This document shows positions 6,211-38,502 of a stretch of 64,000 bases of DNA, one piece after another. Origin of the DNA: an uncultured Cytophagales bacterium (lineage in GTDB: Bacteria; Bacteroidota; Bacteroidia; Cytophagales; Spirosomataceae). Within the stretch, counting starts at the first letter, position 1; every line of letters begins with the position of its first letter. A program made the translations under genes and the position numbers. Location of the stretch: contig CAVYGM010000042.1 in the NCBI GenBank assembly GCA_963768025.1, positions 142,589 through 206,588 on the forward strand. Direction: 5' to 3'. The notes beneath the pieces are model-generated. The model was not told the DNA's origin, did not search any database, and saw only the letters and a program-made list of their open reading frames with translations.

Positions 6211-7473
6211 ATGAATAAACTTTTAGTACAGCTTACTTTGTTCCTGGGGATTGGCTTTTGCACCCTGGCACAAAGTACCCCTCCCATACACGTAACCTTC
6301 TTCGGCTCATCCGTTTGCTGGGGTACCGGAGCCGAAAACAACCACGGCTACGCCTGGCAGTTTTTTCATAGCGGGGCCCTCGATACCCTACGATACAAGT
6401 ACTTCAATGCGTCCACCGGGGGAGACAATACCCTCAAAATTGAAAAGGAAGATCGGCTATCCAAAAAGCTGTTTCCTACCCGACCCAACATCGTGGTGAT
6501 TGGCCTGTCACTGGGAAACGAAGGAATTCTTACGCCCAAGGACGACAACGGCCGGGAGCAGATTCTGGAACAGTACCGTAGCCGTTTGCTGGCCCTAGCC
6601 GACTCCCTCAATAGCTTGGGGATGAAGCCGATTATCGTCAATTGCTACTCCAACTCGAATTTTACGGAGGCCCATTACGAGATCACCCAGCGCATGAACC
6701 GGATCATCAATACCTGGGACTATCCGAGCATCAACGTGCTGGGGGCGGTGGATGATCTGACCGGAAAATGGGTAGATGGCTACGTACGAGATCCCCTCCA
6801 CCCCAACACGGCCGGGCACACCGAGATGTCCTACACCCTGGTACCGTCTCTGTTTGAAGCTATGCAGATAGGTAAGAGAACCCCCGCTTACGACTGGCAC
6901 CGAAGCTACGCCACTCTGCTAAACAAGAACAAAGTGGAAAAACCACTGACGCTTGACCTGACCAGCACCGTCCATTCCTTCACCCTCAGTTTTAGGTTCA
7001 AGGAAACCACCGACGGGAGCATGGCCGGCTTTATCTCCGGCAATCAAAACCACCCGATCGCGGTGTCGGGCCAAAGTATACGGTATAAGAACCTCAGCCG
7101 AGCCTTTTCCGCCACCCCCGAAACCTGGATGCACGTGGTACTTTCCCATAGCTTTGTGAATCAGAAAACGATACTATTCGTAAACGGTGAACCGGTCGGG
7201 AGCGTGCAGGAACAGCTCTCCCCCACGCAGGCATACTTCGGCGGCACGGCCCCGAAAACCGAACTGAAAGACCTGACCCTGCACCGCTCCGCTTTGAACG
7301 AGAGCGAAGCGCTCGATTTGTACAATAAGAAATTCATCCAATCCAGCCTGGAATACTACAATCCGCTTACCCGGCCCGTTACGGGGGGCGAGGTGGGTAA
7401 TGAGGCACAAAGCCTTTCTACCTTGAAAGTGGGCAAGGGAGTAGTTGTGGAGCATCAGCGCGTCGATTTTTAA
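6211..7473 (+). CDS. Secreted SGNH/GDSL-type hydrolase fused to a C-terminal concanavalin-A-like (LamG-type) domain
   Basis: Signal peptide MNKLLVQLTLFLGIGFCTLAQS, an N-terminal FFGSSVCWG block (GDS-like), and a C-terminal beta-sandwich-like region (…TILFVNGEPVGS…LTLHRSALNESEALDLYN). Confidence 0.6.
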   Translation: MNKLLVQLTLFLGIGFCTLAQSTPPIHVTFFGSSVCWGTGAENNHGYAWQFFHSGALDTLRYKYFNASTGGDNTLKIEKEDRLSKKLFPTRPNIVVIGLSLGNEGILTPKDDNGREQILEQYRSRLLALADSLNSLGMKPIIVNCYSNSNFTEAHYEITQRMNRIINTWDYPSINVLGAVDDLTGKWVDGYVRDPLHPNTAGHTEMSYTLVPSLFEAMQIGKRTPAYDWHRSYATLLNKNKVEKPLTLDLTSTVHSFTLSFRFKETTDGSMAGFISGNQNHPIAVSGQSIRYKNLSRAFSATPETWMHVVLSHSFVNQKTILFVNGEPVGSVQEQLSPTQAYFGGTAPKTELKDLTLHRSALNESEALDLYNKKFIQSSLEYYNPLTRPVTGGEVGNEAQSLSTLKVGKGVVVEHQRVDF

Positions 7474-7536
7474 GCTCCGTACTTTATTCATGTCCTGACT
7501 TAGAGTAGAAATTCAGGCTCATTACTCATCCCTTCT

Positions 7537-8466
7537 ATGCGCAAAATCGCAGGCTACCTACGCACCCACGTACGAGAAGACTTTGAGCTCAGATTGTACC
7601 TCAAAGTAGCCCTTTTTCTGACTACCCTCATCGCGATCAACTATACGATTGACCTCGAAGATCGGATCATTGACGCCTGGATTGGCAACCCCATCCGCAT
7701 CCTGTGGTACTTTTTGCTGTACGCCACGGCCTACTACGGAACCTTGCTCATCTGGGCGCTTCATTCTGGACAGATGCAGGTATTCCGTAATTCACGCGTG
7801 TGGCTATACAGCCTGTTTGGCCTGGCGGTGCTGGCCTGGGACGGCGGTTTTTATGGCTACCAGTCGTGGAGCAAACAGCTTTTCGAGGGACACATCTACT
7901 GGTTTGCGTTCTACGGTTTGTCCAACCTGTCGTCTTTGCTCACCGTGTTTACGCCCCTCATTCTCTTTTATTTCCTACTGGATGGGCAGCGCACCCATTT
8001 CTACGGACTTTTCAAAGCCCAAAACATAAGCCCCTATCTCCTTTTGCTGGCCGCCATGCTGCCCCTCATCGCCTGGGCCTCGTTCCAGCCCGACTTTATG
8101 AGTACCTATCCTACGTACCGCGATTCGTCGGCCAACGAATTCTTTGGGGTAGCGCCCTGGGTTACGGCTTTGGCTTTCGAGCTATTCTATGGCTTCGATT
8201 TCATCTCCACCGAGCTGCTGTTTCGAGGCTTCCTGATCATCGGCATGGCGCACTTGTTGGGCCGGGGTACCCTGCTGCCCATGGTGGTATGCTACGCCTC
8301 GCTGCACTTTGGCAAGCCCCTGGGCGAAACCATCGGTTCTGTCTTTGGGGGCTATATTCTAGGCGTCATTGCGCTCAACTCCCGGTCGGTTTGGGGCGGG
8401 ATTCTGGTTCATGTCGGTATAGCCTGGGCCATGGAGATCGCCGCCTGGCTGCAACTGACGCGTTAA
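7537..8466 (+). CDS. CPBP-family intramembrane metalloprotease (CAAX protease / Abi-type)
   Basis: Polytopic membrane protein carrying the signature TELLFRGFL plus downstream His motifs. Confidence 0.8.
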   Translation: MRKIAGYLRTHVREDFELRLYLKVALFLTTLIAINYTIDLEDRIIDAWIGNPIRILWYFLLYATAYYGTLLIWALHSGQMQVFRNSRVWLYSLFGLAVLAWDGGFYGYQSWSKQLFEGHIYWFAFYGLSNLSSLLTVFTPLILFYFLLDGQRTHFYGLFKAQNISPYLLLLAAMLPLIAWASFQPDFMSTYPTYRDSSANEFFGVAPWVTALAFELFYGFDFISTELLFRGFLIIGMAHLLGRGTLLPMVVCYASLHFGKPLGETIGSVFGGYILGVIALNSRSVWGGILVHVGIAWAMEIAAWLQLTR

Positions 8467-8680
8467 AGTGGTCTTCAGGAAGTACCCCCTTCTTTTTTTC
8501 TTTCATATACTTCTGCCAATCTCCCTGGTGGTCGGCCTTCCTCCTATTTGTCCTTTACCAAGAACCTATATCATTATTTAAAATTATTCTAAATAACTCT
8601 TTGAAATTTATAAACGCCTTTTACCTTTGTGAGACTATTTATAAAAAGTCTAAATAAATATAGATTAAACAAAGGTACGA

Positions 8681-11042
8681 ATGAACCATAAACTACTACT
8701 TACTATATGCCTGGTGCTGTTGTCGCTCGGGGTCATAGCCCAAACCGGGCAAGTCAAGGGAATTGTCGCTAGCCAAGACGGGCAGCCCGCGACTGATGTA
8801 TCGGTGCAGCTGAAAGAACTCAACAAAGGTATGAGCACCAATGCGCAGGGGGAGTTTGTATTCGTCACCCTACCGACTGGCTCCTACACCCTCGTAGCGT
8901 CATTCATGGGTTTCAAAACCCTCGAAAAGAAAATAAAAATTGAGGAGAACAAAACGGTGAATCTGGCTCTGGAACTCGTGGAAAGCACCGACCAGCTGAA
9001 AGAGATTGTGGTGAAAGGCTATACAAGTCCCAACGAGAAGCCGATTTCGGTGGGGAAAATCGCCATCCGACCCATGGATCTTCCGCAAAGTACGGCCATT
9101 ATTGATCAGCAGACGCTGATTAACCAGCAGGTGCTCCGCATGAGCGACGTACTCATGAACACCAATGGCATCTACATTATGGGAGCCACGGGTGGGTACC
9201 AGGAGGAGATCGCCGGGCGCGGATTCTCCTTTGGCAGTTCCAATACTTTCAAGAACGGGGTACGGTACTTCAACGGCATGCTGAGCGAAATGAGCGGACT
9301 GGAACGCGTGGAGGTATTGAAAGGCAGTTCGGCCATTCTGTTTGGTAATGTGGCGGCCGGGGGCATCCTGAACCTCGTGACCAAAAAGCCAAAGTTTGAT
9401 TTTGGCGGGGAAGTATCCATGCGCGTAGGCAGTTTTGGATTGGTAAAGCCCTCCTTCGATGTGTACGGGGCGATCGATAAAAAGCAACGGGTGGCTTTCC
9501 GCGTCAACGGTACCTACGAAAAAGCCAACAGTTTCCGTGAGGGCGTAAGTTCGGAGCGGTTCTACATCAACCCCTCACTGCTGGTAAAACTGGGCGAAAA
9601 AACCGATTTCCTGGTCGAAGCAGACTACCTGAACGACCAGCGCACGCCAGATTTTGGCTCGGGAATTATCAACTACCAAATCGTGGATATCCCACGCGAG
9701 CGCTTCCTGGGCGTACCCTGGGGCTACTTCAAGGCCGAACAGGTTTCCACCACGGCCACCCTCACGCACCGGCTATCGCAAAACTGGAAGCTGTCCCTCA
9801 TTGGGGCCTACCGCAACCATGCCACCGACCTGTTTGCCAACGCCCGCCCCAACACCGGTGGACTTATTCCCGCCTCAGGTACCTGGATCCGAAATATTCA
9901 GCGTAGCCAATCGGCCGAAGACTACTACCTGGGCCAACTGGATTTGACCGGTACCTTCACTACGGGCCGGGTATCCCATCAGGTACTAGTGGGGATGGAT
10001 ACCGATCAGTACAACACCCGCACTACGGGCTACGGGCAGCTGGCACGCTACGACACCATCAATATCTACGGCACACGGCAGTATGCCCGGCGCACCGACA
10101 TTCCGGTTCTGAACCCCTCTACGCTCACAACATCTCCGGTGAATCGGGTGGGAGTGTATGCTCAGGATCTGATTAGCATCACCAATTACGTGAAGGTACT
10201 GGCCGGAATCCGGTACAGCTACCAGCAGACCGGCAGCGATGTGTTTACGTATAGCACCAAAGCCACCACCAACAGCGTGTACTACGACGGTGCCTTTTCG
10301 CCCCGCCTGGGCCTGGTGTTCCAACCTACCAAAAACCACTCGGCGTTTGCGAGCTACGCCAATTCTTTCTCCCTCAATACCGGCGTGGATGTGGCCGGCA
10401 ATGCCCTGCCTCCTTCCTACATTGACCAATATGAAGTGGGTGTGAAAAATGAATTGCTGGATGGCAAACTGTCTGCCAATGCCACGGTGTACCGCATTCT
10501 GAACAGCAATCTGGCCCAGATTTCGCTGGCGGACGGCAATACCAACAACAACATCAAAGAGCTGGCCGGATCGGTGCAGAGCGAAGGCGTGGAGCTGGAT
10601 CTGGTGGCGCGGCCCGTCCAGGGGGCTGTCGCTGATGGCCGGATACAGCTACAACGAAACCCGCTACGTGAAAAGCAATACCTACGTAGAAGGTAGCCTG
10701 CTGCGCTACAATCCCAAGCACACCGCCAATGCCAGCGCCCAGTATCGTTTTGAGCAAGGTACCCTCAAAGGCCTGTCGCTCGGGGTAGCGGGCGTGTACA
10801 TAGGTCAGCGGTACGCCGGGCGATCCACCCGCGTGCAGGTAGCCAACGACGCCTACCAGCTCATCGGGCTACCAGCCTACACCCAGCTGGATGGTACCCT
10901 GGGCTACACATTCCGGTCTATATCTCTGCGGGGGAAAATCGGGAATATCTTCGATGTACTCAGTTATAATGTGCACGACGACAATAGCGTTAATCCCATT
11001 ACGCCCCGCAATTACTCCGTAGCTTTGTCTTATAAATTTTAA
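8681..11042 (+). pseudogene. TonB-dependent outer-membrane receptor (CarboxypepD_reg N-domain + plug + barrel) interrupted by a 1-nt frameshift in a G5 run at about 10621-10625
   Basis: ORF 8681-10696 (signal peptide, plug, barrel) and ORF 10635-11042 (the C-terminal barrel strands …ALSYKF) join when one G is removed: …VARPVQG|LSLMAGYSYNETRYV…. This could be a genuine pseudogene or an assembly indel. Confidence 0.8.
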
Positions 11043-15645: not shown

Positions 15646-16692
15646 ATGCAGCCCGATATCCGGCAAATTTCCGAAAAACTCGGTCTGAGCCTGCAAAATA
15701 CCCATGAACTTTACGATGTGGTGATCATCGGTGCCGGACCGGCCGGGCTATCGGCGGCGGTATACGGTGGGTCGGAAGGTTTGAAAACCCTGCTGGTTGA
15801 GAAGCGGGCTCCCGGTGGGCAGGCGGGCACCAGCTCCCGGATTGAGAACTACCTGGGCTTTCCGTCGGGCCTGAGCGGGGCGGAGCTTTCGCGCCGGGCC
15901 ATTACACAGGCTACCCGCTTTGGCGTTGATTTTCTGTCCCCCGAGGAAGTTGTCAGCATCGAGGTAAAGGACAACTATAAGATGATCACCCTGGGAAGTG
16001 GAAAAGTGATCAACACCAAGAGCATCGTAGTTACCACCGGGGTCAACTACCGGAAGCTGGAAACCAAGGGAGTTGGTGACTTTACCGGCGCGGGGGTATA
16101 CTACGGCGCCGCCACTACCGAAGCCAATTCGTGCCGCGACCGCGAGGTGTACGTGGTAGGGGGTGGCAATTCGGCCGGTCAGGGAGCCATGTACCTCTCG
16201 CAGTTTGCCAAAAACGTGTACATCATGATCCGCAAGCCTGATCTTACGGAAACCATGTCTAGCTACCTCATTGACCAGATCAATTCAACCCCCAACATTC
16301 ACATTTTGGCTTGTTCCGAGATCTTGGAAGCGAAGGGCGATGGGCACTTGCAGGAACTGCTGGTGCAGGACCTGAACACGACGCACACGCGCACGCTACC
16401 GGCCGATGCCCTGTTCATTTTTATTGGGGCCAAGCCCTACACCGAATGGATCGAAAACAACTTGCTTAAAGACGAAAGAGGATTTATCGAAACCGGCCGG
16501 GCGCTGGTCAACTACGCCAATTATAAGAAAGTCTGGAAGAAACAGCGGGAACCTTATACGCTGGAAACCTGCGTACCGGGCATTTTTGCCGCGGGTGACG
16601 TGCGGGCTTCGGCTATGAACCGCGTGGCCTCCGCCGTGGGTGAAGGTGCCATGGCTATCAGCTTTGTGCATAAGTACCTAGCCGAAATATAG
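15646..16692 (+). CDS. Thioredoxin-reductase-like FAD/NAD(P)-binding oxidoreductase; the reading frame is open upstream to 15583
   Basis: Motifs GAGPAG (FAD), GGGNSAG (NADPH) and the C-terminal …GIFAAGDV…. The in-frame upstream peptide PFNNLEAKDAPFVFFEDGSFL resembles the linker of fused RR-TrxR proteins. Confidence 0.8.
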   Translation: MQPDIRQISEKLGLSLQNTHELYDVVIIGAGPAGLSAAVYGGSEGLKTLLVEKRAPGGQAGTSSRIENYLGFPSGLSGAELSRRAITQATRFGVDFLSPEEVVSIEVKDNYKMITLGSGKVINTKSIVVTTGVNYRKLETKGVGDFTGAGVYYGAATTEANSCRDREVYVVGGGNSAGQGAMYLSQFAKNVYIMIRKPDLTETMSSYLIDQINSTPNIHILACSEILEAKGDGHLQELLVQDLNTTHTRTLPADALFIFIGAKPYTEWIENNLLKDERGFIETGRALVNYANYKKVWKKQREPYTLETCVPGIFAAGDVRASAMNRVASAVGEGAMAISFVHKYLAEI

Positions 16693-16757
16693 TTCCATCC
16701 CTAACTTTCGGGAAGTTCAAAACTTCCCGAAAGTTGACTAACCCACTCCAACTCACG

Positions 16758-17024
16758 ATGTCACAACTATGCAGCCATCTTTCCTCGCTGGAGGAAATAA
16801 AAGTCGCCTCCACCTATGAGTGCGAAGAGTGCGTAAAAGTAGGTGGGCAATGGGTACACCTGCGTACCTGCCAAACCTGCGGAGTCACGCTATGTTGTGA
16901 CTCATCCCCTTCCCGCCACGCTACGGCACATTATCAGGCCACGGGCCATCCGGTGGTAGCCTCGGCCGAGCCGGGCGAAAACTGGGTGTGGTGCAACAAG
17001 GATCAACAATTCGCTGAATACTAG
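16758..17024 (+). CDS. UBP-type zinc-finger domain protein
   Basis: Cys/His-rich ECEEC…CQTCG…LCC…H…H pattern typical of zf-UBP; small protein. A start at 16734 is possible. Confidence 0.55.
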   Translation: MSQLCSHLSSLEEIKVASTYECEECVKVGGQWVHLRTCQTCGVTLCCDSSPSRHATAHYQATGHPVVASAEPGENWVWCNKDQQFAEY

Positions 17025-27372: not shown

Positions 27373-28290
27373 TTATTTTTCGAAATACTCATGAGTTGTG
27401 CCTTTGTTACTATGCTCCAATAACTGTTTTATGATAATCGATGCGCGGTTGCCGTTCTCGATTATCTTACCCAAATTAATTTTGAGCAGTTCGCCACACT
27501 CCTTTTTTTCTTCGTCGCTGGTTGACGAAAGTACCTCGTCGACTAGCTCTTCCGATACTATCGAAAAATTATTTACAAAATTAAGCGGGTTCTGAATTTC
27601 GTGAGCCAGCCGTGTGGCTACCATCCCAAAAGCGGCCATTTTTTCACTTTTGATTAATTGTTCTTGGGTCTCTTCCAGTTTTTTATAAGCTGCTTGTTCG
27701 GAAATTAGTAATTCTTGTGAATGATTCTTCTCCTTTTGTAGAGTTGTCACAAACCACAGAGAAGTAGCGAAAACAACAGAAGACGCCATGCCAATGTTCA
27801 TAATATGAAACAAGGTTCGGACAGAATCGGATACGGTTACCTTGTAGCCCAGAAGAACTGGTTCGTACACCGCAGATATCACAATGATTGCAATGAACAT
27901 CAGTAAAAATAAAATGGCCTGTCTCCTTGAAAGAAAGATAGTTGCGCCTATGGGTCCTAGGAAACTCCAAAAAGTCACGAAACCACTCTGGTTTAAACTT
28001 CCAATACTCCATTGAATGAAGGCCGTAATCCAAGTGATACAGATCAGAAAAGTATATAGAAGAATCCGGTAATTGTGTAAGAAATGAGAAATAGGAATAG
28101 CCATTCCTACAATGATCAGGAACAAAAAGGGAAGAAAAGTAATAAGTCCCCAGCCGAAAATAAAGTAATATACAACAGCCCAGGCCCCCCCGCAGGTGCA
28201 GAGGGTAGTGGCAATAATGAGAACCAACGATTTCCTAAAAGTTGTTTCTGCTGTATCGCCATACTCTTTTGCATAGTTGGCAATTTTCAT
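27373..28290 (-). CDS. Membrane-anchored histidine-kinase-like protein: six or more TM helices plus coiled-coil plus HisKA (H-box LAHEIQNPL), ending before the HATPase_c domain
   Basis: 305-aa ORF. The polytopic N-terminus, coiled-coil and HisKA are read from the translation. The protein stops at …NGNRASIIIKQLLEHSNKGTTHEYFEK with no N/G1/G2 boxes following. Confidence 0.55.
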   Translation of the reverse strand: MKIANYAKEYGDTAETTFRKSLVLIIATTLCTCGGAWAVVYYFIFGWGLITFLPFLFLIIVGMAIPISHFLHNYRILLYTFLICITWITAFIQWSIGSLNQSGFVTFWSFLGPIGATIFLSRRQAILFLLMFIAIIVISAVYEPVLLGYKVTVSDSVRTLFHIMNIGMASSVVFATSLWFVTTLQKEKNHSQELLISEQAAYKKLEETQEQLIKSEKMAAFGMVATRLAHEIQNPLNFVNNFSIVSEELVDEVLSSTSDEEKKECGELLKINLGKIIENGNRASIIIKQLLEHSNKGTTHEYFEK

Positions 28291-28584: not shown

Positions 28585-29688
28585 CTATTCCAATCCAACC
28601 AACTGATAATTGGTACTCCTACCGCCGGAATCTTCCTTTTCCAAAACCCCTTGCTCCACCAGATTTTGAATGTCCCGCAGGGCCGTGTCCGGGGATACTT
28701 TGGTGAGTTTTGCCCACTTGGAAGTGGTGAGTTTGCCTTCAAAGCCGTCGAGTAGTTTGTTCAACATTAGCTTTTGCCGGTCGCTGATTTCCTTTTCGGC
28801 TAGCCAAGTCCAGTAACGAGCTTTGGTAAGAGTGGAATTGAGCGTCGTTTCGGAGGCGGATAGGGCGCGGTCGAGGCAGGATAGAAACCACCGCAACCAG
28901 TCCGTAACGTCCAAATCGCCCCTTTGCGTTTTTTCAAGGATACCGTAGTACTGCTTCCGTTCCAGCTGTATCTGCGCCGACATGCTATAAAAGCGCTGAA
29001 GACTGCGGTCAGAACGTGTCAACTGCAAGTCGGCAATAGCCCGCGCAATGCGACCATTGCCATCGTCAAAGGGATGGATCGTCACGAACCACAGATGCGC
29101 CAGGGCCGCTTTGACGACGGGATCGTAGTCGAGATTGCTATTGAACCAGTGGATAAAGGCCGCCATTTCAGCCGGAACCCTTTCGGAAGGTGGGGCCTCA
29201 AAATGAATTCTCTCCCGTCCCAAAGCCCCCGAGACCACCTGCATGGGCCCCTTCGTGTTGTCGCGCCACTCACCCACGGTAATGTTGAACATACCGCTGC
29301 GGCCGGTCGGAAACAGCGCCGCCTGCCAGCCAAAGAGTCGGTCGTCCGTAAGGGGCAGCTGATGCCTTTGGGTAGCATCCAGCAGCATCTCCACCACTCC
29401 GTCTACGTGTCGGTCGGCGGGAGCCAGGGCACCAATATCTATCCCCAGTTGTCGGGCAATGGAAGAGCGTACCTGATCGGCCGGGAGCATTTCACCCTCA
29501 ATCTCGCTCGATTTTAGAACATCCAGCGTGAGGATTTGTAAGGTAGCTTCTTCGCGCAAAGAAAAACCAAGGCTTTCCATGCGACCTACGAGCCTACCCT
29601 GCCGGTGGCGCACCTCTGCCAGCAGGGTAGAAATCGATTCGCTATCCCAGTTAAAATGGGGCCAGTCGGGTCTTTGATATACATACAT
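28585..29688 (-). CDS. Fic-family AMP-transferase with DUF4172-type N-terminus (class II, autoinhibited)
   Basis: Canonical Fic motif HPFDDGNGRIAR and an N-terminal inhibitory-helix motif SSEIEG ((S/T)xxxE(G/N)). Confidence 0.85.
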   Translation of the reverse strand: MYVYQRPDWPHFNWDSESISTLLAEVRHRQGRLVGRMESLGFSLREEATLQILTLDVLKSSEIEGEMLPADQVRSSIARQLGIDIGALAPADRHVDGVVEMLLDATQRHQLPLTDDRLFGWQAALFPTGRSGMFNITVGEWRDNTKGPMQVVSGALGRERIHFEAPPSERVPAEMAAFIHWFNSNLDYDPVVKAALAHLWFVTIHPFDDGNGRIARAIADLQLTRSDRSLQRFYSMSAQIQLERKQYYGILEKTQRGDLDVTDWLRWFLSCLDRALSASETTLNSTLTKARYWTWLAEKEISDRQKLMLNKLLDGFEGKLTTSKWAKLTKVSPDTALRDIQNLVEQGVLEKEDSGGRSTNYQLVGLE

Positions 29689-29788: not shown

Positions 29789-31321
29789 CTAATCCTCCCG
29801 CCCCTCCTTCCGATTGGCATCGGCCATCCTGACAATCTTGGGCGTAAACTTCGCCAGTACCTCCACGAGGTCACGTTGGGCGTCGATGACGGTTTCGATG
29901 TCTTTATACACCATTGGGGCCTCGTCTAGGTCGCCGCCGATGAGCTGAATGTCGGCTTCTTCTACTACCTTCTTCAACTGCGCGTGGGTAATGGTTTTCA
30001 ACGCCTGCGTGCGGGACATTAAGCGCCCAGCTCCGTGCGAAGCCGAGTTGATGGAGTCGGCGTGACCCCGTCCCCGTACCACAAAACCGGGTGTAGTCAT
30101 AGAGCCTGGTATGATGCCCAACACGCCGGGCCCGGCCGGGGTAGCCCCCTTGCGGTGTACCATCACCTCGCGGCCGTCGGCCAGTTGCTCCTTCCAGGCA
30201 AAGTTGTGATGGTTTTCGATCATTGCCAGCGGTTTTTCGCGCAGGGCTTTGGCTACCTTGCTGTGGATTTCGTGGTGGTTGGCTGAGGCGTACTCACCGG
30301 CCAGGTTCATGGCTATCCAGTACTCCTGCCCTTCTTCGGTATCCAGGTCGAGCCAGGCGAGGTGGGCGGCCTGTTTGGGCAATCGGGTTTTCTGCATAGC
30401 CAGTTTGGAGTAGTAGTTGGCCACGTTGCCGCCAAAGCCCCGCGAACCCGAATGCGACAGCAGCGCCAGGTATTGGCCCGCAGGTAGGTTGAGGCCGTTA
30501 GCTTTCTCTTCTCCGTATACGTCCACGAGGCCCCACTCCACAAAGTGGTTGCCGGTGCCGGAGGTACCTAGCTGCCGGTAGGCCTTGTCTTTGAGGTTGC
30601 GGATCACCTTGGTGGCGTGCCACTCGGGCCGGTCCATCACGCTCTCGTCAAACTTGTCGCGTACCTCGCCCCCCATGCCAAATTTGGTATTTTCGAGCAG
30701 CGTCTTTTGCAGCAGGTGCGGCTCGCGCTTCAAAAAATCTGGCGTCATATCGAAGATAGACAGGCACATGCGGCAAGCAATATCCACGCCCACGGCGTAG
30801 GGAATGACGGTGTTCGGCTCCGTGGCCAGCACGCCGCCAATGGGTAGTCCGTAGCCTTGGTGGGCATCGGGCATGAGCGCCCCGGCCACCGAAATGGGCA
30901 GGCTCGCGGCAGTTTCCATTTGCCGGAGAGCGCCCTCTTCGATGTGCTCGCGGCCAAAAATAGCGTAGGGTAGCTGCTCGGCTCGCAAGTCAAAGGCCTG
31001 TGTCCCCTGCTGCTCCCCGGCCGGAAGCACAAACGGCGGTGGCTCCGGCGGCAGGTAGGTGGCTCCCGCTACGCTCAGCGGCACGGCAATGCCCTGCTTG
31101 TTGAGAGCGTAGATGGCCTGCGCCAGGTTGGTGACCTTGCTTCTGGAGTAGGCGTATTTTTTGGGGTTCCGCAGCACCTGCGCCAGCAGGCCCATTACTT
31201 TTTCTTTGGGGTACTTGGCCCGCTGCACCAGCCCGTTGGCCACCCGCAGAAATGTCGCGTGCAGGTCGGCAGGAATGGGGGCCAGGATCAGGATATCGTC
31301 AAGGGTGATTGGGGTTTCCAT
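29789..31321 (-). CDS. rtcB: RtcB-family RNA 3'-phosphate ligase with a roughly 120-aa N-terminal extension
   Basis: Conserved RtcB core (…MPDAHQGYGLPIGGV…, …GTSGTGNHF…, …HNFAW…, …SASHGAGR…). The start is assigned to the ATG at 31319-31321 (METPITL…). Confidence 0.9.
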   Translation of the reverse strand: METPITLDDILILAPIPADLHATFLRVANGLVQRAKYPKEKVMGLLAQVLRNPKKYAYSRSKVTNLAQAIYALNKQGIAVPLSVAGATYLPPEPPPFVLPAGEQQGTQAFDLRAEQLPYAIFGREHIEEGALRQMETAASLPISVAGALMPDAHQGYGLPIGGVLATEPNTVIPYAVGVDIACRMCLSIFDMTPDFLKREPHLLQKTLLENTKFGMGGEVRDKFDESVMDRPEWHATKVIRNLKDKAYRQLGTSGTGNHFVEWGLVDVYGEEKANGLNLPAGQYLALLSHSGSRGFGGNVANYYSKLAMQKTRLPKQAAHLAWLDLDTEEGQEYWIAMNLAGEYASANHHEIHSKVAKALREKPLAMIENHHNFAWKEQLADGREVMVHRKGATPAGPGVLGIIPGSMTTPGFVVRGRGHADSINSASHGAGRLMSRTQALKTITHAQLKKVVEEADIQLIGGDLDEAPMVYKDIETVIDAQRDLVEVLAKFTPKIVRMADANRKEGRED

Positions 31322-31348
31322 GGTTGATTTTATGTCTATAGAAAAATT

Positions 31349-31428
31349 AAAACCGCAAAGACGCGATGGGCGCAAGGATTCAATTGCTTTATTTTTAATT
31401 CTTTGCGCCTTAGCGTCTTTGCGGTTTT
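31349..31428 (-). terminator. About 80-nt nested hairpin (outer arms AAAACCGCAAAGACGC / GCGTCTTTGCGGTTTT, inner GGCGCAAGGA / TCTTTGCGCC) between the SPFH stop and the rtcB start
   Basis: Read from the sequence. On the minus-strand transcript it is followed by UUAAUUUUUC, so it is a plausible intrinsic terminator for the SPFH gene. A role as a regulatory leader for rtcB is also possible. Confidence 0.5.
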
Positions 31429-31447: not shown

Positions 31448-32554
31448 TTAATTTTTAGAAGAAACAAAAATCTGCTTTAATTGGTCAATAATCTGACCGC
31501 TGCCGGATACAGAAATGGAGCTGATTTTGTCGGCGATTTTTTCTACGTACTCCATCTCCTTTAACTTCCACAGCATGTCGTTGTCCTCCATGAGCTTGGC
31601 GGTATTTAGCAAGCTACGCGTGGATGCGGTTTCCTCCCGACGCATGATGATGTTGGCCTGGGCTTTCTTTTCGGCCATTAACACCTGATTCATGATGTCG
31701 CGCATATCCCCCGGCAGGATAATGTCGCGAACGCCTCCACCCATCAACTCTACGCCCAGTAGCCCGGCTTTGGCTTTGGTCGCGTGCAGAATGGCTTCGG
31801 CCATGTCGGCTTTTTTATCGAGCAATTCGTCGAGGGTCAAGCCCCCGATGTACGCCCGTAAGGCCAGCTGAATCTGTACGTATAGTTGCTTGTCGTACTC
31901 CCTGTTTTCGACTAACGCTAACTTCACGTCATTGACCTGGTACTGCACATAAAAGCTAATCCGAATGGAGGCTTTGTCTTTGGTCAAAATCTCCTGACCC
32001 GAGATTTCCATCTGCTGCCGACGGGTATCGACTTTCGAAAAGTTAATCGGCGTGTTATTTTTCCACCAGTAATACTGTCCGGGGCCCAGCACGCTATCGA
32101 ATTTCCAGTCTATGTATAAAATGGCTTTCTCGTGCTGTTCCACGGTGACGGTCCGTGTGTAGGTACCCAAAGCCTGAGGCAGCAGCGACGCCAGATCCAC
32201 TTCGGCCGGAATAGCCAACTGAGTAACATCCAGAACCTGGTAGTGGTAGTTCCTTACGCCCTTCCAATACGCCCAGCGTCCGGTCCGCAAAACGCCCTGG
32301 AACAGATCATTTTCGTACTGCAACGCAATCTCGTTGTCTTTTACTTCCACCACGTCCAGTTCGGCCGCAATGGCTGGGTACGAAAGCAGGATCGTCAGGT
32401 CGCAGGGCGGATTTTTTAATAATTCACCCCGGTTATAGACGTATACGGTTTCGTTGGACCAAATCCAGTGTTTCCCCGGTGAAAGTACTTTCTGGAAATC
32501 GCCGTGTTTGAATACTAACCCGATTTGCAGGGCCTGGATGCGAACAGTTTTCAT
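31448..32554 (-). CDS. SPFH/band-7 domain protein (slipin/flotillin-like)
   Basis: SPFH core (…YVQYQVNDVKLALVENREYDKQLYVQIQLALRAYIGGLTLDELLDKK…) and a coiled-coil C-terminus. There is no obvious N-terminal TM anchor. Confidence 0.75.
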   Translation of the reverse strand: MKTVRIQALQIGLVFKHGDFQKVLSPGKHWIWSNETVYVYNRGELLKNPPCDLTILLSYPAIAAELDVVEVKDNEIALQYENDLFQGVLRTGRWAYWKGVRNYHYQVLDVTQLAIPAEVDLASLLPQALGTYTRTVTVEQHEKAILYIDWKFDSVLGPGQYYWWKNNTPINFSKVDTRRQQMEISGQEILTKDKASIRISFYVQYQVNDVKLALVENREYDKQLYVQIQLALRAYIGGLTLDELLDKKADMAEAILHATKAKAGLLGVELMGGGVRDIILPGDMRDIMNQVLMAEKKAQANIIMRREETASTRSLLNTAKLMEDNDMLWKLKEMEYVEKIADKISSISVSGSGQIIDQLKQIFVSSKN

Positions 32555-32868
32555 GATTATTATGGATAAATGGTTTCAATGTATACCAGCAGAAGGCTAC
32601 CCCTTGAGCTAACACGGAGACAGGTGGTGAGAGCAATCGGAAAAGAGGTTCGAAAAAAGGGTTCAGGACCAAGTGCCAGCGCCGAACCGAAGCCCGGGAG
32701 CCAACCGCATTGAGGCTGAATGCTTTTTCAGAAGCTGCCTTCCTTCCTGCCCACACCCGGTCTGTCTACTTGGTGCCGGCCCAAGTGTGGTGAATCTGGC
32801 AAGCCAGGGCACCACGGGGTAGCGTCTGCTGATTTTTTTTGGTGGCCTTTTAGAAGTGACCTTCTTCT

Positions 32869-33018
32869 TCTGTTGCTCTACCAACTGAGCTATCTTGCCA
32901 GGGCAAGAAGAGGACTCGAACCTCTGACTGACAGATCACAGTACTCTGTTGCTCTACCATTGAGCTTCCCTGCCGGAGCAAGGGGAGGACTCGAACCTCC
33001 ATGCCACAGAGTACAAAA
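32869..33018 (-). pseudogene. Cluster of three tRNA-derived segments on the minus strand: a 3' half (about 32975-33018), a near-full-length tRNA-like unit with a 9-nt anticodon loop (32901-32974), and a 5' half (32869-32899)
   Basis: Minus-strand read of the middle unit: GGCAGGGAAGCTCAATGGTAGAGCAACAGAGTACTGTGATCTGTCAGTCAGAGGTTCGAGTCCTCTTCTTGCCC. The acceptor, D, T (AGAGG/TTCGAGT/CCTCT) and anticodon stems (ACAGA/TCTGT) all pair, but the anticodon loop is GUACUGUGA. Flanking pieces are GGCAAGATAGCTCAGTTGGTAGAGCAACAGA… and …GTACTCTGTGGCATGGAGGTTCGAGTCCTCCCCTTGCTCC. Confidence 0.6.
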
Positions 33019-33203
33019 CGAAACCAACCCTTAGCCAACAGCATATCGGTAATCAGCGACTCCGACACTATGGGGCTATGTAAAAACCCACATCCGGTTT
33101 GGCTACGTTGCTTTCGTCCCAACAAAGGTTAGCGCCAGGTACGCAGTCTTTTTGCGTAGATGAAAAAACTTTTTACTTTTCTGAAAATATTTTCTTTTTA
33201 CCT

Positions 33204-34217
33204 ATGCCTGCCAACCGAAATGCCCTCGTCCGCTACAAAACCATTGATGCCTGCCTGCGCAACCGGCAGCGCAACTGGACACTCGACGACCTGATGGAAA
33301 AAGTATCAGAAGCCCTATATGAGTACGAGGGTATCGACAAAGGCATCAGCCGACGCACGGTGCAGGCCGATATCCAATTGATGCGGAGCGATAAGCTGGG
33401 CTACTTTGCCCCCATCATCATTCGCGACAAAAAGTATTATACCTACGAAGATCCCGGGTATAGTATCACCAATATTCCGCTGTCGGATGGTGATCTGGCG
33501 CGCATGAATGAGGCCGTGGAGGTATTGAAGCAGTTCAAGGGCTTCTCCCACTTTACCTCCCTCAACGAAGTGGTGCAAAAGCTGGAAGATCATGTGTTTT
33601 CGTCGGCCCGAAAAATGGCTCCTATTATTGATTTTGAGAAAAACGAAAACCTGAAAGGACTTCACTTTCTGGATGATTTGTACCAGGCCGTAATCCAAAA
33701 AAAGGCGGTACTCCTGACGTACCAGTCATTTTCAGCCCACCTCCCACAAACGTTTCCCTTTCATGTGTGGTGGCTAAAAGAGTTCAAAAATCGTTGGTTT
33801 GCGGTGGGCGTTCGTACTGAGCAGCGACACGTGACGAACCTGGCCCTGGACCGGATCATGAACCTGGACTCTGCACCTGATACCGACTACGTAGCAAACC
33901 AACAACTTGACCCGGAACAGTACTACCGCGACGTGATCGGCGTGACGGTGAATGCGAACCTACGACCCCTGAAAGTGAAACTATTCGTCGCCCAGCTTCA
34001 TGCACCCTACGTCGAAACCAAACCTCTCCACCACTCGCAGCAGGTAAAGGAGCGGCGCCCGGACGGCCTTGTCATTCAGCTGAAAGTACAGCACAACTTC
34101 GAACTCGAAAAAGAAATCCTCAGCTTTGGCGAAGGCATGGTGGTGCTCGAACCCGAGAAGCTCCGCCAAATTATCAGCCGACGAATGAAGGCCGCCCTTA
34201 CTTCCTACGAGCCGTGA
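33204..34217 (+). CDS. HTH-WYL-WCX transcriptional regulator (BrxR/CapW/PafBC-like)
   Basis: ATG at 33204 (MPANRNALVRYKTIDACLRN…). N-terminal wHTH, central WYL-like segment (…HVWWLKEFKNRWFAVGV…) and a C-terminal extension. Confidence 0.75.
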   Translation: MPANRNALVRYKTIDACLRNRQRNWTLDDLMEKVSEALYEYEGIDKGISRRTVQADIQLMRSDKLGYFAPIIIRDKKYYTYEDPGYSITNIPLSDGDLARMNEAVEVLKQFKGFSHFTSLNEVVQKLEDHVFSSARKMAPIIDFEKNENLKGLHFLDDLYQAVIQKKAVLLTYQSFSAHLPQTFPFHVWWLKEFKNRWFAVGVRTEQRHVTNLALDRIMNLDSAPDTDYVANQQLDPEQYYRDVIGVTVNANLRPLKVKLFVAQLHAPYVETKPLHHSQQVKERRPDGLVIQLKVQHNFELEKEILSFGEGMVVLEPEKLRQIISRRMKAALTSYEP

Positions 34218-35840: not shown

Positions 35841-35842
35841 TG

Positions 35843-35915
35843 TGGTGATGGACGGAATCGAACCGCCGACACAAGGATTTTCAGTCCTTTGCTCTACCGA
35901 CTGAGCTACATCACC
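35843..35915 (-). tRNA. tRNA-Phe (anticodon GAA)
   Basis: Minus-strand read: GGTGATGTAGCTCAGTCGGTAGAGCAAAGGACTGAAAATCCTTGTGTCGGCGGTTCGATTCCGTCCATCACCA. Canonical cloverleaf, anticodon loop CUGAAAA, and no encoded CCA. Confidence 0.9.
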
Positions 35916-36198: not shown

Positions 36199-37518
36199 AT
36201 GGAAATACTTCAGCTGATAGCGTTCATTGCCGTTTTTGGCCTAACGATCTGGTTTATAGCCAAGCGAGTGACCTTTATCAAACAAAACATTCAGGTAGGT
36301 CGTCCCGAAAACCGCACGGATCGCCCGGCCGAACGGCTGGGTGTGATGCTCCGGGTAGCGTTTGGACAAACCAAGATGTTCGACCGCCCCGTGGTGGGTA
36401 TCATGCACTTTGTGATCTATGCCGGTTTTCTGCTGATCAATATAGAGGTTCTGGAAATCATCCTGGACGGCATTACGGGCCAACACCGGCTGTTTGCGCC
36501 GTGGCTGGGAGGCTTCTACACGTTCCTCATCAGCTTTTTTGAGTTTCTGGCTGTGGGCGTGTGGGTGGTCTGCGTGGTGTTTCTACTCCGCCGCAACGTT
36601 ACCAAGGTAGAACGCCTGCAAGCGAGCCGCCACCGTGAGATGAACGGCTGGCCTGAGCTAGACGCCAACCTGATCCTGATTTTCGAGATTGTCCTCATGA
36701 CCGCCATCCTGACTATGAATGCCGCCGATCTGGCCTTGCAGGACCTGGGCAGTGCGCACTATACCCAAACGGGTACCTTTGCGTTCAGTCAGTGGCTGAA
36801 GCCCCTCTTTGCGGGCTGGAGCGAAACCAGTCTGATCGTCTACGAACGCGTGGCCTGGTGGATTCACATCGTGGGCATCTTTGGCTTTGCGGTGTACGTC
36901 ACCTACTCCAAGCACCTGCACATTGCGCTGGCGTTCCCGAATACCTACTTTGCCCGGCTGATTCCGCGCGGGGAAATGCAGAATATGCCCGAGATAACCA
37001 AAGAGGTGAAGATCATGCTTGGGGTAGAGCAGCCCGACCCCAACGAACAACCCGCCGAAATAGGGCGGTTTGGGGCCAAGGATGTGATGGATCTGAGCTG
37101 GAAAAACCTGATGGATGCCTACTCGTGTACCGAATGCGGACGCTGCACCTCGCAGTGCCCGGCCAACCTCACGGGCAAGCTGCTGTCGCCGCGCAAGATT
37201 ATGATGGACACCCGCGACCGCCTCGAAGACGTAGGGCGAAATAGGCAGGCCAACGGAGGAACCTTTGTGGACGATGGGAAAAGCCTGCTGCACGACCACA
37301 TCCTGCAGGAGGAACTGCTGGCCTGCACTACCTGCAACGCCTGCGTGGAGGCCTGCCCCATCCTGATTAATCCGCTGGATATTATTTTGCAGCTCCGTCG
37401 CTACCAGATCATGGATGAGGCCAAGGCCCCCGGCTCCTGGAATGCCATGTTCAGCAACCTCGAAACGAGTCAGGCCCCCTGGAAATTTTCGCCCTGCCGA
37501 CCGGTTCAACTGGGCTGA
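36199..37518 (+). CDS. Membrane-anchored (Fe-S)-binding protein with two 4Fe-4S ferredoxin-type motifs (Hdr/GlpC-like N-terminal module)
   Basis: N-terminal TM helices, then CTECGRCTSQCP and CTTCNACVEACP. Confidence 0.75.
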   Translation: MEILQLIAFIAVFGLTIWFIAKRVTFIKQNIQVGRPENRTDRPAERLGVMLRVAFGQTKMFDRPVVGIMHFVIYAGFLLINIEVLEIILDGITGQHRLFAPWLGGFYTFLISFFEFLAVGVWVVCVVFLLRRNVTKVERLQASRHREMNGWPELDANLILIFEIVLMTAILTMNAADLALQDLGSAHYTQTGTFAFSQWLKPLFAGWSETSLIVYERVAWWIHIVGIFGFAVYVTYSKHLHIALAFPNTYFARLIPRGEMQNMPEITKEVKIMLGVEQPDPNEQPAEIGRFGAKDVMDLSWKNLMDAYSCTECGRCTSQCPANLTGKLLSPRKIMMDTRDRLEDVGRNRQANGGTFVDDGKSLLHDHILQEELLACTTCNACVEACPILINPLDIILQLRRYQIMDEAKAPGSWNAMFSNLETSQAPWKFSPCRPVQLG

Positions 37519-37554
37519 TGGACTGAAATGAAGAGAATTTTAAATGAATTAGTC

Positions 37555-37640
37555 CTTGGTTCTGAGTTCGTAGTTGTGTTTATGTCTGTAAAGAATTGGA
37601 TATACTCCATCAGCAAAAAAACCAAGAACTCAGAACCAAG
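37555..37640. repeat. 15-bp inverted repeat (cttggttctgagttc … gaactcagaaccaag) with a 56-nt spacer in the gap between the two oxidoreductase ORFs
   Basis: Read from the sequence. The right arm overlaps a short direct repeat (accaagaact). Confidence 0.7.
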
Positions 37641-37704
37641 AACTTGAAATTCACCCAATAAAGATAATGGCTAACAGCCTAACGACCTGACTTCTAAAAA
37701 CCTA

Positions 37705-38502
37705 ATGAGCGAAACACCTTATAAAGTACCCACCATGGCCGAGATGGCCGCCCAGGGCGAAATGCCTGAAATTCTGTTTTGGGTAGGTTGCGCCGGCTCA
37801 TTCGACGACCGGAGCAAAAAAATCACCATTGCCTTTGTGAAAATCCTCAACCAAATCGGGATCAAGTTTGCCGTATTAGGTACCGAGGAAGGCTGCACCG
37901 GCGACCCCGCCCGGCGGGCGGGTAATGAGTTTTTGTTTCAGATGCAGGCGATGGCCAATATTCAGGTGCTGGATATGTACAACGTGAAGAAGATCGTGAC
38001 CGCCTGCCCGCACTGCTTCAATACCCTCAAAAACGAGTACCCTGAGCTCGGGGGAAACTACGAAGTAATCCACCATTCTACGTTTTTGCAACAACTCATT
38101 GACGAAGGCCGGATAAAAATCGAGGGGGGAGGTGCCTTCAAGGGCCGCAAAATCACCTTCCACGACTCCTGCTACCTGGGCCGGGCCAATGGCATATACG
38201 AGGCCCCGCGGTCGGTACTGGAAGCACTCGACGCCGATCTGGTAGAAATGAAGCGCAGCAAAGCCAAAGGACTCTGCTGCGGAGCCGGAGGCGGGCAGAT
38301 GTTCAAGGAGCCCGAGCCTGGCAAAAAGGATGTCAACATCGAGCGCATCGAGGAAGCCCTGGCCACTGGGGCCGATACCGTAGCCGTATCCTGTCCTTTT
38401 TGCATGGTGATGATGACCGACGGCGTCAAAAACAAAAACAAGGAAGAATCCGTGCGTGTGTACGATCTGGCCGAGCTGGTGGCTCAGGCCAATGGCTGGT
38501 AA
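37705..38502 (+). CDS. Cysteine-rich CCG-domain protein (HdrD/GlpC C-terminal-module-like), partner of the upstream Fe-S protein
   Basis: Two CCG-type motifs (…VGCAGSF…CTGDP…, …TACPHCFNTL…, …CCGAGGG…, …SCPFCMVMM…). Confidence 0.75.
   Translation: MSETPYKVPTMAEMAAQGEMPEILFWVGCAGSFDDRSKKITIAFVKILNQIGIKFAVLGTEEGCTGDPARRAGNEFLFQMQAMANIQVLDMYNVKKIVTACPHCFNTLKNEYPELGGNYEVIHHSTFLQQLIDEGRIKIEGGGAFKGRKITFHDSCYLGRANGIYEAPRSVLEALDADLVEMKRSKAKGLCCGAGGGQMFKEPEPGKKDVNIERIEEALATGADTVAVSCPFCMVMMTDGVKNKNKEESVRVYDLAELVAQANGW

Follow-up and report, generated by a model that had tools for sequence, protein, structure and literature searches.

Two tandem circularly permuted tRNA-like modules of the YrlA type upstream of a slipin-rtcB operon in a Cytophagales bacterium

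Introduction

Why should a cluster of tRNA-like sequence lie directly in front of an RNA-repair operon, and is it debris, an unusual tRNA gene or an RNA in its own right? The question is raised by a 64,000-nucleotide (nt) stretch of DNA from an uncultured Cytophagales bacterium of the Spirosomataceae (contig CAVYGM010000042.1, positions 142,589 to 206,588), which is called the window here. On its minus strand, the segment 32869-33018 is located between a slipin (SPFH) gene followed by the RNA ligase gene rtcB on one side and a divergent gene for a WYL-type regulator on the other. The initial annotation had described the segment as three abutting pieces, a tRNA 3' half, a complete 74-nt unit with a 9-nt anticodon loop and a 5' half, and had considered decayed tandem tRNA genes, att-site scars of island turnover and a tRNA-like RNA as explanations. 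The resemblance to tRNA is far beyond chance. The segment holds, in tandem, two modules that resemble a circularly permuted tRNA and belong to the YrlA type known from bacterial Y RNAs, and the apparent 74-nt tRNA is composed of the 3' part of module 1 and the 5' part of module 2.

The YrlA domain that resembles tRNA is a circularly permuted tRNA in which a variable region, the T arm, a loop-closed acceptor-like stem and the D arm follow one another (PMC4201824). Its “anticodon” stem opens toward the remainder of the RNA, and positions 15 and 48 covary between G15:C48 and A15:U48 (Chen et al. 2014, PMC4201824). The role of this domain has been open since 2014. The same authors warned that tandem tRNA genes can mimic YrlA matches (Chen et al. 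2014, PMC4201824), and because of this comparative evidence is required before a match can be interpreted.

Sequence and fold of the two modules

All bases cited in the initial annotation are found on the minus strand between 33018 and 32869, including GGAGG/TTCGAGT/CCTCC, the unit GGCAGGG...TCTTGCC with its D stem GCTC/GAGC, the strands ACAGA/TCTGT, the T stem AGAGG/CCTCT and the loop GTACTGTGA, and the terminal piece GGCAAGA-TA-GCTCAGTTGGTAGAGC-A-ACAGA. The boundaries drawn between the pieces, however, were misplaced, as the segment is made of two complete permuted modules at 33014-32941 and 32935-32869 and not of a whole tRNA flanked by a 3' half and a 5' half. In the 5' to 3' direction each module runs through a closing strand, the variable loop, the T arm, a closed acceptor hairpin, the D arm and the second closing strand. 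Neither has an anticodon loop or a free acceptor end, and the arms are held together by a closing helix that resembles an anticodon stem.

Module 1 (32941..33014, minus strand) was delineated by its Rfam YrlA match, by R1, a covariance model of a single module built from both window copies, by covariation and by the minimum-free-energy (MFE) fold. Its closing stem GUACUCUGU/ACAGAGUAC encloses the variable loop GGCAU, the T arm GGAGG-UUCGAGU-CCUCC and the acceptor-like hairpin CCUUGC-UCCG-GCAGGG, followed by AA, the D arm GCUC-AAUGGUA-GAGC and a single A before ACAGAGUAC. Sequence and structure evaluation define the 5-nt linker UGUGA (32936..32940, minus strand), which joins it to module 2 (32869..32935, minus strand), a lineage-specific duplicate of module 1 recognized by its Rfam YrlA match, the R1 model and comparison with relatives. 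Here the closing stem UCUGU/ACAGA holds the variable loop CAGUC, the T arm AGAGG-UUCGAGU-CCUCU and the acceptor-like hairpin UCUUGC-CCUG-GCAAGA, then UA and the D arm GCUC-AGUUGGUA-GAGC. The complementarity noticed earlier between the acceptor strands of the “5' half” and of the middle unit is real, but it is merely this hairpin of module 2. The “9-nt anticodon loop” in turn is the linker UGUGA plus the GUAC of module 1, and these last four bases pair with the GUAC at 33014-33011, so that module 1 has a closing stem of 9 bp.

In a permissive scan of 32500-33400, the Rfam YrlA model matched module 1 at 33014-32941 (model positions 17-92, 37.4 bits, E 1.9e-6) and module 2 at 32933-32867 (model positions 23-89, 41.5 bits, E 1.3e-7), with both matches spanning solely the tRNA-like core of the model. 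The R1 model scores the two modules at 92.2 and 94.6 bits, respectively. The Rfam tRNA model (RF00005) finds a match at 32901-32974 (48.7 bits at a gathering score of 29, E 3e-9), so tandem permuted tRNA mimics can yield false tRNA calls above threshold. ARAGORN reports no tRNA at 32869-33018. Folding of the two modules gives -56.1 kcal/mol versus an MFE of -56.3 kcal/mol, and the MFE fold contains module 1, while the cloverleaf alone reaches -36.1 kcal/mol and a nested cloverleaf -46.4 kcal/mol.

Conservation and covariation in the permuted register

Starting from an alignment of 20 slipin homologues, we retrieved 80 loci from species-representative genomes of Cytophagales, Chitinophagales, Marinilabiliales and other Bacteroidota (locus labels L001 onward). 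The R1 model matches 73 of the 80 loci, on the same strand as and 300-550 nt upstream of the slipin gene, and about 55-60 loci carry a second T-arm module 60-75 nt beyond the first. Among the 64 best R1 matches, 96.7% of the cells are paired in the permuted register, compared to 41-55% in controls with slid partners. Compensatory changes on both sides occur at 17 of 20 pairs in these 64 homologues, including all six pairs of the acceptor hairpin and all five of the closing stem. The Levitt pair 15:48 is G:C in 50 modules, A:U in 7, A:C in 4 and of another kind in 3. Because the helices and the Levitt pair covary in that register, the permuted, hairpin-closed fold is the one under selection. 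Moreover, the sequences of the D stem and the T stem are kept beyond what the fold requires.

Does the cloverleaf of the apparent middle tRNA show a comparable signal? Over 44 two-module loci, the acceptor pairs that would form across modules amount to 3.0 of 5 on average, as against 4.6-4.8 of 5 for the hairpins, and most second modules do not have their own 5' closing strand. In the loci of relatives the cloverleaf reading is not conserved, and it is not under selection.

Duplication in the window and variation between lineages

In the closest relatives of the window, just one module separates the junction domain from the pseudoknot described below (L084 and L085 with 87% slipin identity, L086 with 83% and L087 with 82%), and the arrangement is the same in Arsenicibacter and Runella. 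In L084-L087 the site of module 2 corresponds to a gap of 72-75 nt, matched by an insertion in the window. Tandem Repeats Finder detected nothing in 32700-33200; the duplication instead emerges from the alignment of the copies and from the relatives. The two copies differ at 15 columns, and each of the five differences in stems preserves pairing, comprising double compensatory changes at two pairs and a single switch from G.U to A-U. The Levitt pair is A:U in module 1 and G:C in module 2. Since the relatives have one module and the stem changes preserve pairing, the tandem arrangement is a recent duplication of a functional module and not as decay. The pattern of substitutions indicates that both copies are still under structural constraint.

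Across lineages the number of modules ranges from none or a partial one in L003-L006, through one in the relatives of the window, to two in most Chitinophagaceae. In Larkinella-type loci only the T arm and the acceptor hairpin are left. The second module of Chitinophagaceae extends into a full anticodon stem-loop that is absent from the clade of the window (L033 6562-6621, L044, L048, L019 and a further 44 loci; columns 71-89 of alignment A5). Its stem is paired at 100% with compensatory changes at all five pairs, and its loop measures 7 nt in 46 of 48 loci and bears the signature Y32-U33-NNN-R37-A38. The “anticodon” itself differs by species, with 21 triplets in 46 loci.

Architecture of the leader

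Alignment and structure prediction place the modules in a leader of about 520 nt that is conserved across Bacteroidota and has four parts, namely a three-way junction, the module or modules, an A-rich pseudoknot of the H type and a large 3' domain that is closed. The 5' three-way junction domain (33033..33104, minus strand) was predicted with RNAalifold from 46 loci (alignment A6), and 18 of its 25 predicted pairs show compensatory changes. It is built from P1 (AGCCAA/UUGGCU) and two hairpins, connected by the conserved junction sequences AAACCnGAUG, CAUAGUG and UAUGCUG. In appearance the domain resembles an aptamer or a protein-binding platform. A hammerhead-like CUGAUGA present in the junction of some loci was considered and dismissed, as the motif is not conserved and there is no Rfam ribozyme match.

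Directly 3' of the modules lies the H-type pseudoknot (32844..32868, minus strand), read from the sequence and from alignment A7. Its stem S1 pairs AGAAG (32868-32864) with CUUCU (32856-32852), and across an A-rich linker the loop bases GGUC (32861-32858) pair with GGCC (32847-32844). The pseudoknot is present in about 65 of 81 loci, and its loop/tail pairing covaries in at least 10 combinations, among them CACCG/UGGUG, CAUCG/UGAUG, CAGCG/UGCUG, CGCCG/UGGCG, GGCC/GGCC and GGACA/UGUCC. Its topology recalls preQ1-I-type or triplex pseudoknots, and no known family matches. A reading of 32868-32844 as a preQ1-I riboswitch was rejected, as neither the window leader nor L033 gave an Rfam PreQ1 match at E up to 10. 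The Rfam tRNA model places the pseudoknot hairpin of L033 at the position of the T arm, after the D arm and the anticodon arm.

The large 3' domain of about 230 nt (32596..32823, minus strand) was predicted with RNAalifold from nine Spirosomataceae loci (alignment A8), with compensatory changes at 23 of 35 pairs. It is closed by a long-range helix between GCUACCCC (32823-32816) and GGGGUAGC (32603-32596), and 41 nt separate its end from the start codon of the slipin gene. No terminator-like site was found within 32400-33400. Apart from tRNA and YrlA, Rfam families gave no match to the leader of the window or of L033 at E up to 10. No family in Rfam 15 covers the leader, which represents a widespread RNA family missing from that collection. 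We did not find it described in the literature searched, including the RlaP preprint, in a search that did not reach every slipin-RtcB survey or the candidate tables of Chen 2014.

Relation to YrlA and Ro60

As in YrlA (RF02553), both window modules combine a permuted T arm, a closed acceptor-like stem-loop and a D arm with near-invariant T-loop and D-loop sequences and with G15:C48 / A15:U48 covariation, and they are encoded within an rtcB RNA-repair operon. Unlike YrlA, they are without the Ro-binding stem (model positions 1-16 and 93-114 are unmatched) and are embedded in tandem in a leader of about 520 nt; in Chitinophagaceae there is in addition a full anticodon arm.

The motif GNCGAAN0-1G has been linked to Ro60 binding (Chen et al. 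2014, PMC4201824). In the window, GACGAAAG (33111..33118, minus strand) fits this motif in the loop of a short 5' hairpin 95 nt upstream of the modules, and it is conserved in L086, L087 and L002. As a family-wide Ro-binding site the motif was discarded, since it occurs in 3 of 52 anchored loci against about 1.6 by chance and is clade-specific. For a YrlA gene, a Ro60 (TROVE) gene on the same strand at a distance of up to about 4 kb is expected. No TROVE domain was detected among the larger open reading frames (ORFs) of the window scanned with Pfam, and a tblastn search with the Ro60 of L013 gave no match in the window and, of the 80 loci, matched L013 and L070 alone.

In these two loci Ro60 (TROVE and vWA) is encoded downstream of slipin (L013, 8333-9844) and upstream of the leader (L070, 4679-6196). 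Beside or near the Ro60 gene both have separate, full-length YrlA-like matches covering model positions 1-114 (L013 10269-10378 with 49.5 bits and 10703-10814; L070 3776-3867). The YrlA match of their leader modules is still limited to positions 23-89. Judged by these comparisons, the modules are a YrlA-type tRNA mimic and do not class with the Ro60-binding Y RNAs. The aspect that appears to be new is that a tRNA mimic of the YrlA type occurs in tandem within a leader and independently of Ro. The tRNA-like domain is found across Bacteroidota without the Ro-binding part and nearly always without a nearby Ro60, which makes its function separately testable; the carriers include the culturable genera Spirosoma, Larkinella, Chitinophaga, Niastella and Runella.

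Promoter, regulator and operon

The gene context given by the initial annotation, SPFH-rtcB with a divergent WYL gene, is correct according to Pfam. Upstream of the leader we assign, for the clade of the window, a putative -7 promoter box TAACCTTTG of the Bacteroidota type (33123..33131, minus strand), based on conservation and on the consensus of this phylum, TAnnTTTG. AACCTTTG is invariant in the window, L084, L086, L087 and L002 (alignment A7) and is present in L001, L005, L006 and L037. Transcription would then start at about 33117-33112. A sigma-70 promoter scan is not applicable to this phylum and was uninformative.

Between this promoter and the WYL gene is a palindromic operator-like site, TACGCA-N7-TGCGTA (33140..33158). 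A palindrome of the type CTGCGCA-AAAAGAC-TGCGCAG with equal spacing to the -7 box is found in L001, L005, L037, L046 and L084, and we consider the palindrome a likely binding site of the divergent regulator. The latter is an HTH-WYL-WCX protein (33204..34217, plus strand; Pfam WYL and WCX) whose actual start is the ATG at 33204, the listed TTG ORF beginning at 33099. Regulators with 72-79% identity are encoded divergently in L001-L005, and the gene is present in L084-L087 as well. A search of PDB sequences with the regulator gave no match.

The first gene after the leader encodes the slipin (31448..32554, minus strand; Band_7, Pfam PF01145, E 1e-26), whose homologues are named slipin family protein; the best named relatives, in Spirosoma, Larkinella and Fibrella, are 72-74% identical and place the organism in the Spirosomataceae of the Cytophagales. 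RtcB follows (29789..31375, minus strand; Pfam PF01139, E 1e-88; PDB RtcB matches, E 1e-35). The L084 orthologue has 510 amino acids (aa), so that the actual start probably lies near 31321. In 62 of 81 loci rtcB comes after the slipin gene.

Proposed mechanism and alternative explanations

What could permuted tRNA mimics achieve in front of an RNA ligase gene? The explanation that we regard as the best overall, and as probable though well short of secure, is that permuted YrlA-type modules in a conserved leader act by tRNA mimicry for the RNA-repair operon. Release of the operator by the WYL regulator would allow the RNA to be transcribed together with the operon. The modules would fold into a tRNA elbow and an acceptor/T minihelix and would offer a tRNA-shaped surface to a factor that recognizes tRNA, for which RNase P, CCA-adding or modification enzymes, RtcB or its partners and a tRNA-targeting nuclease are candidates. 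What becomes of the operon transcript, or how active its products are, would thereby depend on the state of the tRNA pool. The RNA could act in cis, in its role as leader, or, once processed, in trans in the manner of a Y RNA. Mimicry toward a tRNA-recognizing factor is plausible because there are precedents for it in YrlA. This RNA is a substrate for modification by TruB and DusA; in Mycobacterium smegmatis RNase P cleaves it and it receives CCA, and a protective role of the tRNA fold was proposed; competitive inhibition of an anticodon nuclease has been suggested for it as well (PMC7790460). As for function, we infer a tRNA-elbow mimic tied to a response to tRNA damage or translation stress.

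Several observations weigh against this explanation. The YrlA scores of the window, 37.4 and 41.5 bits, lie below the gathering score of 69. The number of modules varies while the three-way junction and the pseudoknot stay more constant, and because of this greater constancy of the flanking domains the modules may be accessory and not the core of the mechanism. As module 2 of Chitinophagaceae has a canonical anticodon stem-loop, one mechanism may not fit all lineages. The WYL gene adjoins only about a quarter of the loci (about 21, divergent). Finally, the transcription start, co-transcription with slipin and processing are all deduced from the sequence.

In a wider and more tentative version, to which we give limited credence, the stretch of about 520 nt between the WYL and slipin genes may be an undescribed class of large multi-domain Bacteroidota RNA that senses tRNA damage or translation stress. 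It would combine an aptamer-like three-way junction, plug-in tRNA mimics, a triplex-type pseudoknot and the closed 3' domain, and the mimics, some with a canonical anticodon loop, could present any of more than 20 triplets. Sensing might be direct, for example if the RNA were bound, cut or repaired as a tRNA would be, and it would then activate or support the repair system of slipin and RtcB, often accompanied by a spare tRNA array. If this is true, tRNA mimicry of the Y RNA type operates without Ro60.

Could the modules instead serve mainly the processing or stability of the transcript? RNase P and the enzymes of tRNA maturation might cut the leader in the loop of the acceptor hairpin, freeing the 5' domain and leaving a slipin-rtcB mRNA with a tRNA-shaped, protected 5' end, with no role in sensing. 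The YrlA of M. smegmatis, cut by RNase P at the equivalent site, given CCA and proposed to be protected by its tRNA fold, speaks for this, as does the varying number of modules between constant flanking domains. We nevertheless think it unlikely, as Salmonella YrlA and Deinococcus radiodurans Yrn1 are not cleaved at that site, the conservation of the D-stem and T-stem sequences exceeds the needs of a fold, and no account is given of module 2 of Chitinophagaceae, whose canonical anticodon loop has variable triplets. A Ro60-binding Y RNA, i.e. a true YrlA orthologue that, as happens in Deinococcus and Salmonella, tethers an Rsr encoded elsewhere in the genome to PNPase or another effector, seems improbable to us. 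The partial YrlA matches, the fit of GACGAAAG to GNCGAAN0-1G near the presumed 5' end, a position in an rtcB operon that parallels Salmonella rsr-yrlBA-rtcBA (PMC7790460) and the Ro60/TROVE genes in two of 80 related loci would agree with it. Yet the matches end at the tRNA-like core and leave the Ro-binding stem uncovered, no TROVE gene was found in the window by Pfam among the larger ORFs or by tblastn with the Ro60 protein of L013, the family as a whole does not keep the GNCGAA motif, and the two loci that do encode Ro60, L013 and L070, carry separate full-length YrlA-like RNAs.

The readings of the segment as tRNA genes, whole or broken, fare far worse. A working tRNA at 32974-32901 with an expanded 9-nt anticodon loop, used for example in frameshift or quadruplet decoding and flanked by remnants, is highly implausible. 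In its favor, all four stems pair, as the initial annotation had it, and the Rfam tRNA match of 48.7 bits exceeds the gathering score; ARAGORN does not call the unit, however, and its fold is 20 kcal/mol worse than that of the two modules. Just 2 nt lie between its 3' acceptor strand and the next “acceptor” strand, and both form a 6-bp hairpin. The unit is missing from the closest relatives, which carry a single permuted module, and the 44 two-module loci favor the hairpins (4.6-4.8 of 5 pairs) over the cross-module acceptor (3.0 of 5). The suggestion of a tRNA-like RNA beside an RNA ligase was therefore right in spirit, but the 74-nt piece is not the functional unit. Debris, either from decayed tandem tRNA genes or as attL/attR-type integrase scars of island turnover, we find hardly credible at all. 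The order of the pieces is superficially scar-like, many relatives have tRNA arrays upstream of the same operon, and tandem tRNAs can imitate YrlA matches (Chen et al. 2014). Both forms are contradicted by the position and the permuted boundaries, which are constant upstream of slipin in 73 of 80 species-level genomes from several Bacteroidota orders, and by the compensatory changes that maintain the acceptor hairpin and closing stem in the permuted register. In addition, the stem differences between the window copies all preserve pairing, conserved RNA domains flank the modules on both sides, and no integrase was detected among the neighbouring ORFs scanned with Pfam. The breakpoints in the anticodon loop are not traces of cleavage or integration but the termini that belong naturally to a permuted tRNA mimic of the YrlA type.

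Comparison with other tRNA-like elements and RNA-repair operons

In circularly permuted, two-piece tmRNA genes the T arm and the 3' acceptor strand precede the 5' acceptor strand, and a pseudoknot follows. The leader shares the permuted order and a pseudoknot after the tRNA-like domain. It differs in that ARAGORN finds no tmRNA or tag reading frame in the window, and in that the acceptor is closed by a 4-nt loop without CCA and a normal D arm is present. The operator of Escherichia coli thrS is an mRNA leader that mimics a tRNA anticodon arm. Both cases involve a tRNA-shaped element in the 5' untranslated region of genes that act on tRNA, and therefore control by competition with real tRNA is plausible for the leader as well; the modules described here, in contrast, mimic the elbow and the acceptor/T helix.

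In Anabaena, the TrcR repressor jointly controls the trn array of 26 tRNA genes, which is induced by stress, together with rtcB, a slipin gene and an AAA ATPase, all in one translation-stress regulon (PMC10272220). The same gene set is clustered physically around the leader in Bacteroidota, so that slipin, RtcB and long tRNA arrays, the trio co-regulated in Anabaena, are joined at these loci. The Anabaena genes are scattered, their repressor is of the ribbon-helix-helix type and not a WYL protein, and no tRNA-like leader has been reported there (PMC10272220). The rsr-yrlBA-rtcBA operon of Salmonella is controlled by RtcR, a sigma-54 activator with a CARF domain (PMC7790460). Like the window operon, it is an RNA-repair operon with a tRNA-like non-coding RNA of its own and a divergent regulator with a nucleic-acid-ligand-binding domain; the window operon differs by its HTH-WYL-WCX regulator and its slipin, and by being without Rsr and RtcA. 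The leader is a candidate regulatory RNA for RtcB operons that do not have RtcR.

Neighbouring genes and tRNA arrays

Genes for an RNaseH_like protein (PF04308) and an AAA ATPase are found just upstream of the leader in 39 loci, and RlaP nucleotidyltransferases are encoded downstream in about 18. Representatives of the recurrent neighbour clusters are L053 4520-5077 and L079 3707-4870. In L076, a HEPN (LA2681-like) protein is encoded directly after slipin (6916-8532). In the window, rtcB is followed by a gene for a DUF4172-Fic-HTH protein (28585..29688, minus strand; Pfam) and then by one for a 305-aa protein without a significant Pfam match (27373-28290, minus strand). Neither of these two proteins has operon homologues in the 80 loci, and both are specific to the operon of this genome.

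Arrays of 5-18 tRNA genes on the same strand, usually ending in tRNA-Phe GAA, are present 2-3 kb upstream of the leader in about half of 60 scanned loci (L012 2942-4583, L016 1457-3023, L024 2941-4632, L031 1655-3192, L066 5396-9664 and about 25 others). In the window, ARAGORN detects upstream of the leader only a tRNA-Phe at 35842-35915 (minus strand). Elsewhere in the window it calls a 93-nt tRNA-Gln(ttg) at 16666-16758 (minus strand). As the Rfam tRNA model remains below its gathering score there, this is probably either a miscall or a gene of unusual form. Beyond the tRNA-Phe, the plus strand at 36199-38502 encodes Fe-S (4Fe-4S dicluster) and CCG-domain proteins, apparently ordinary metabolic genes unrelated to the leader.

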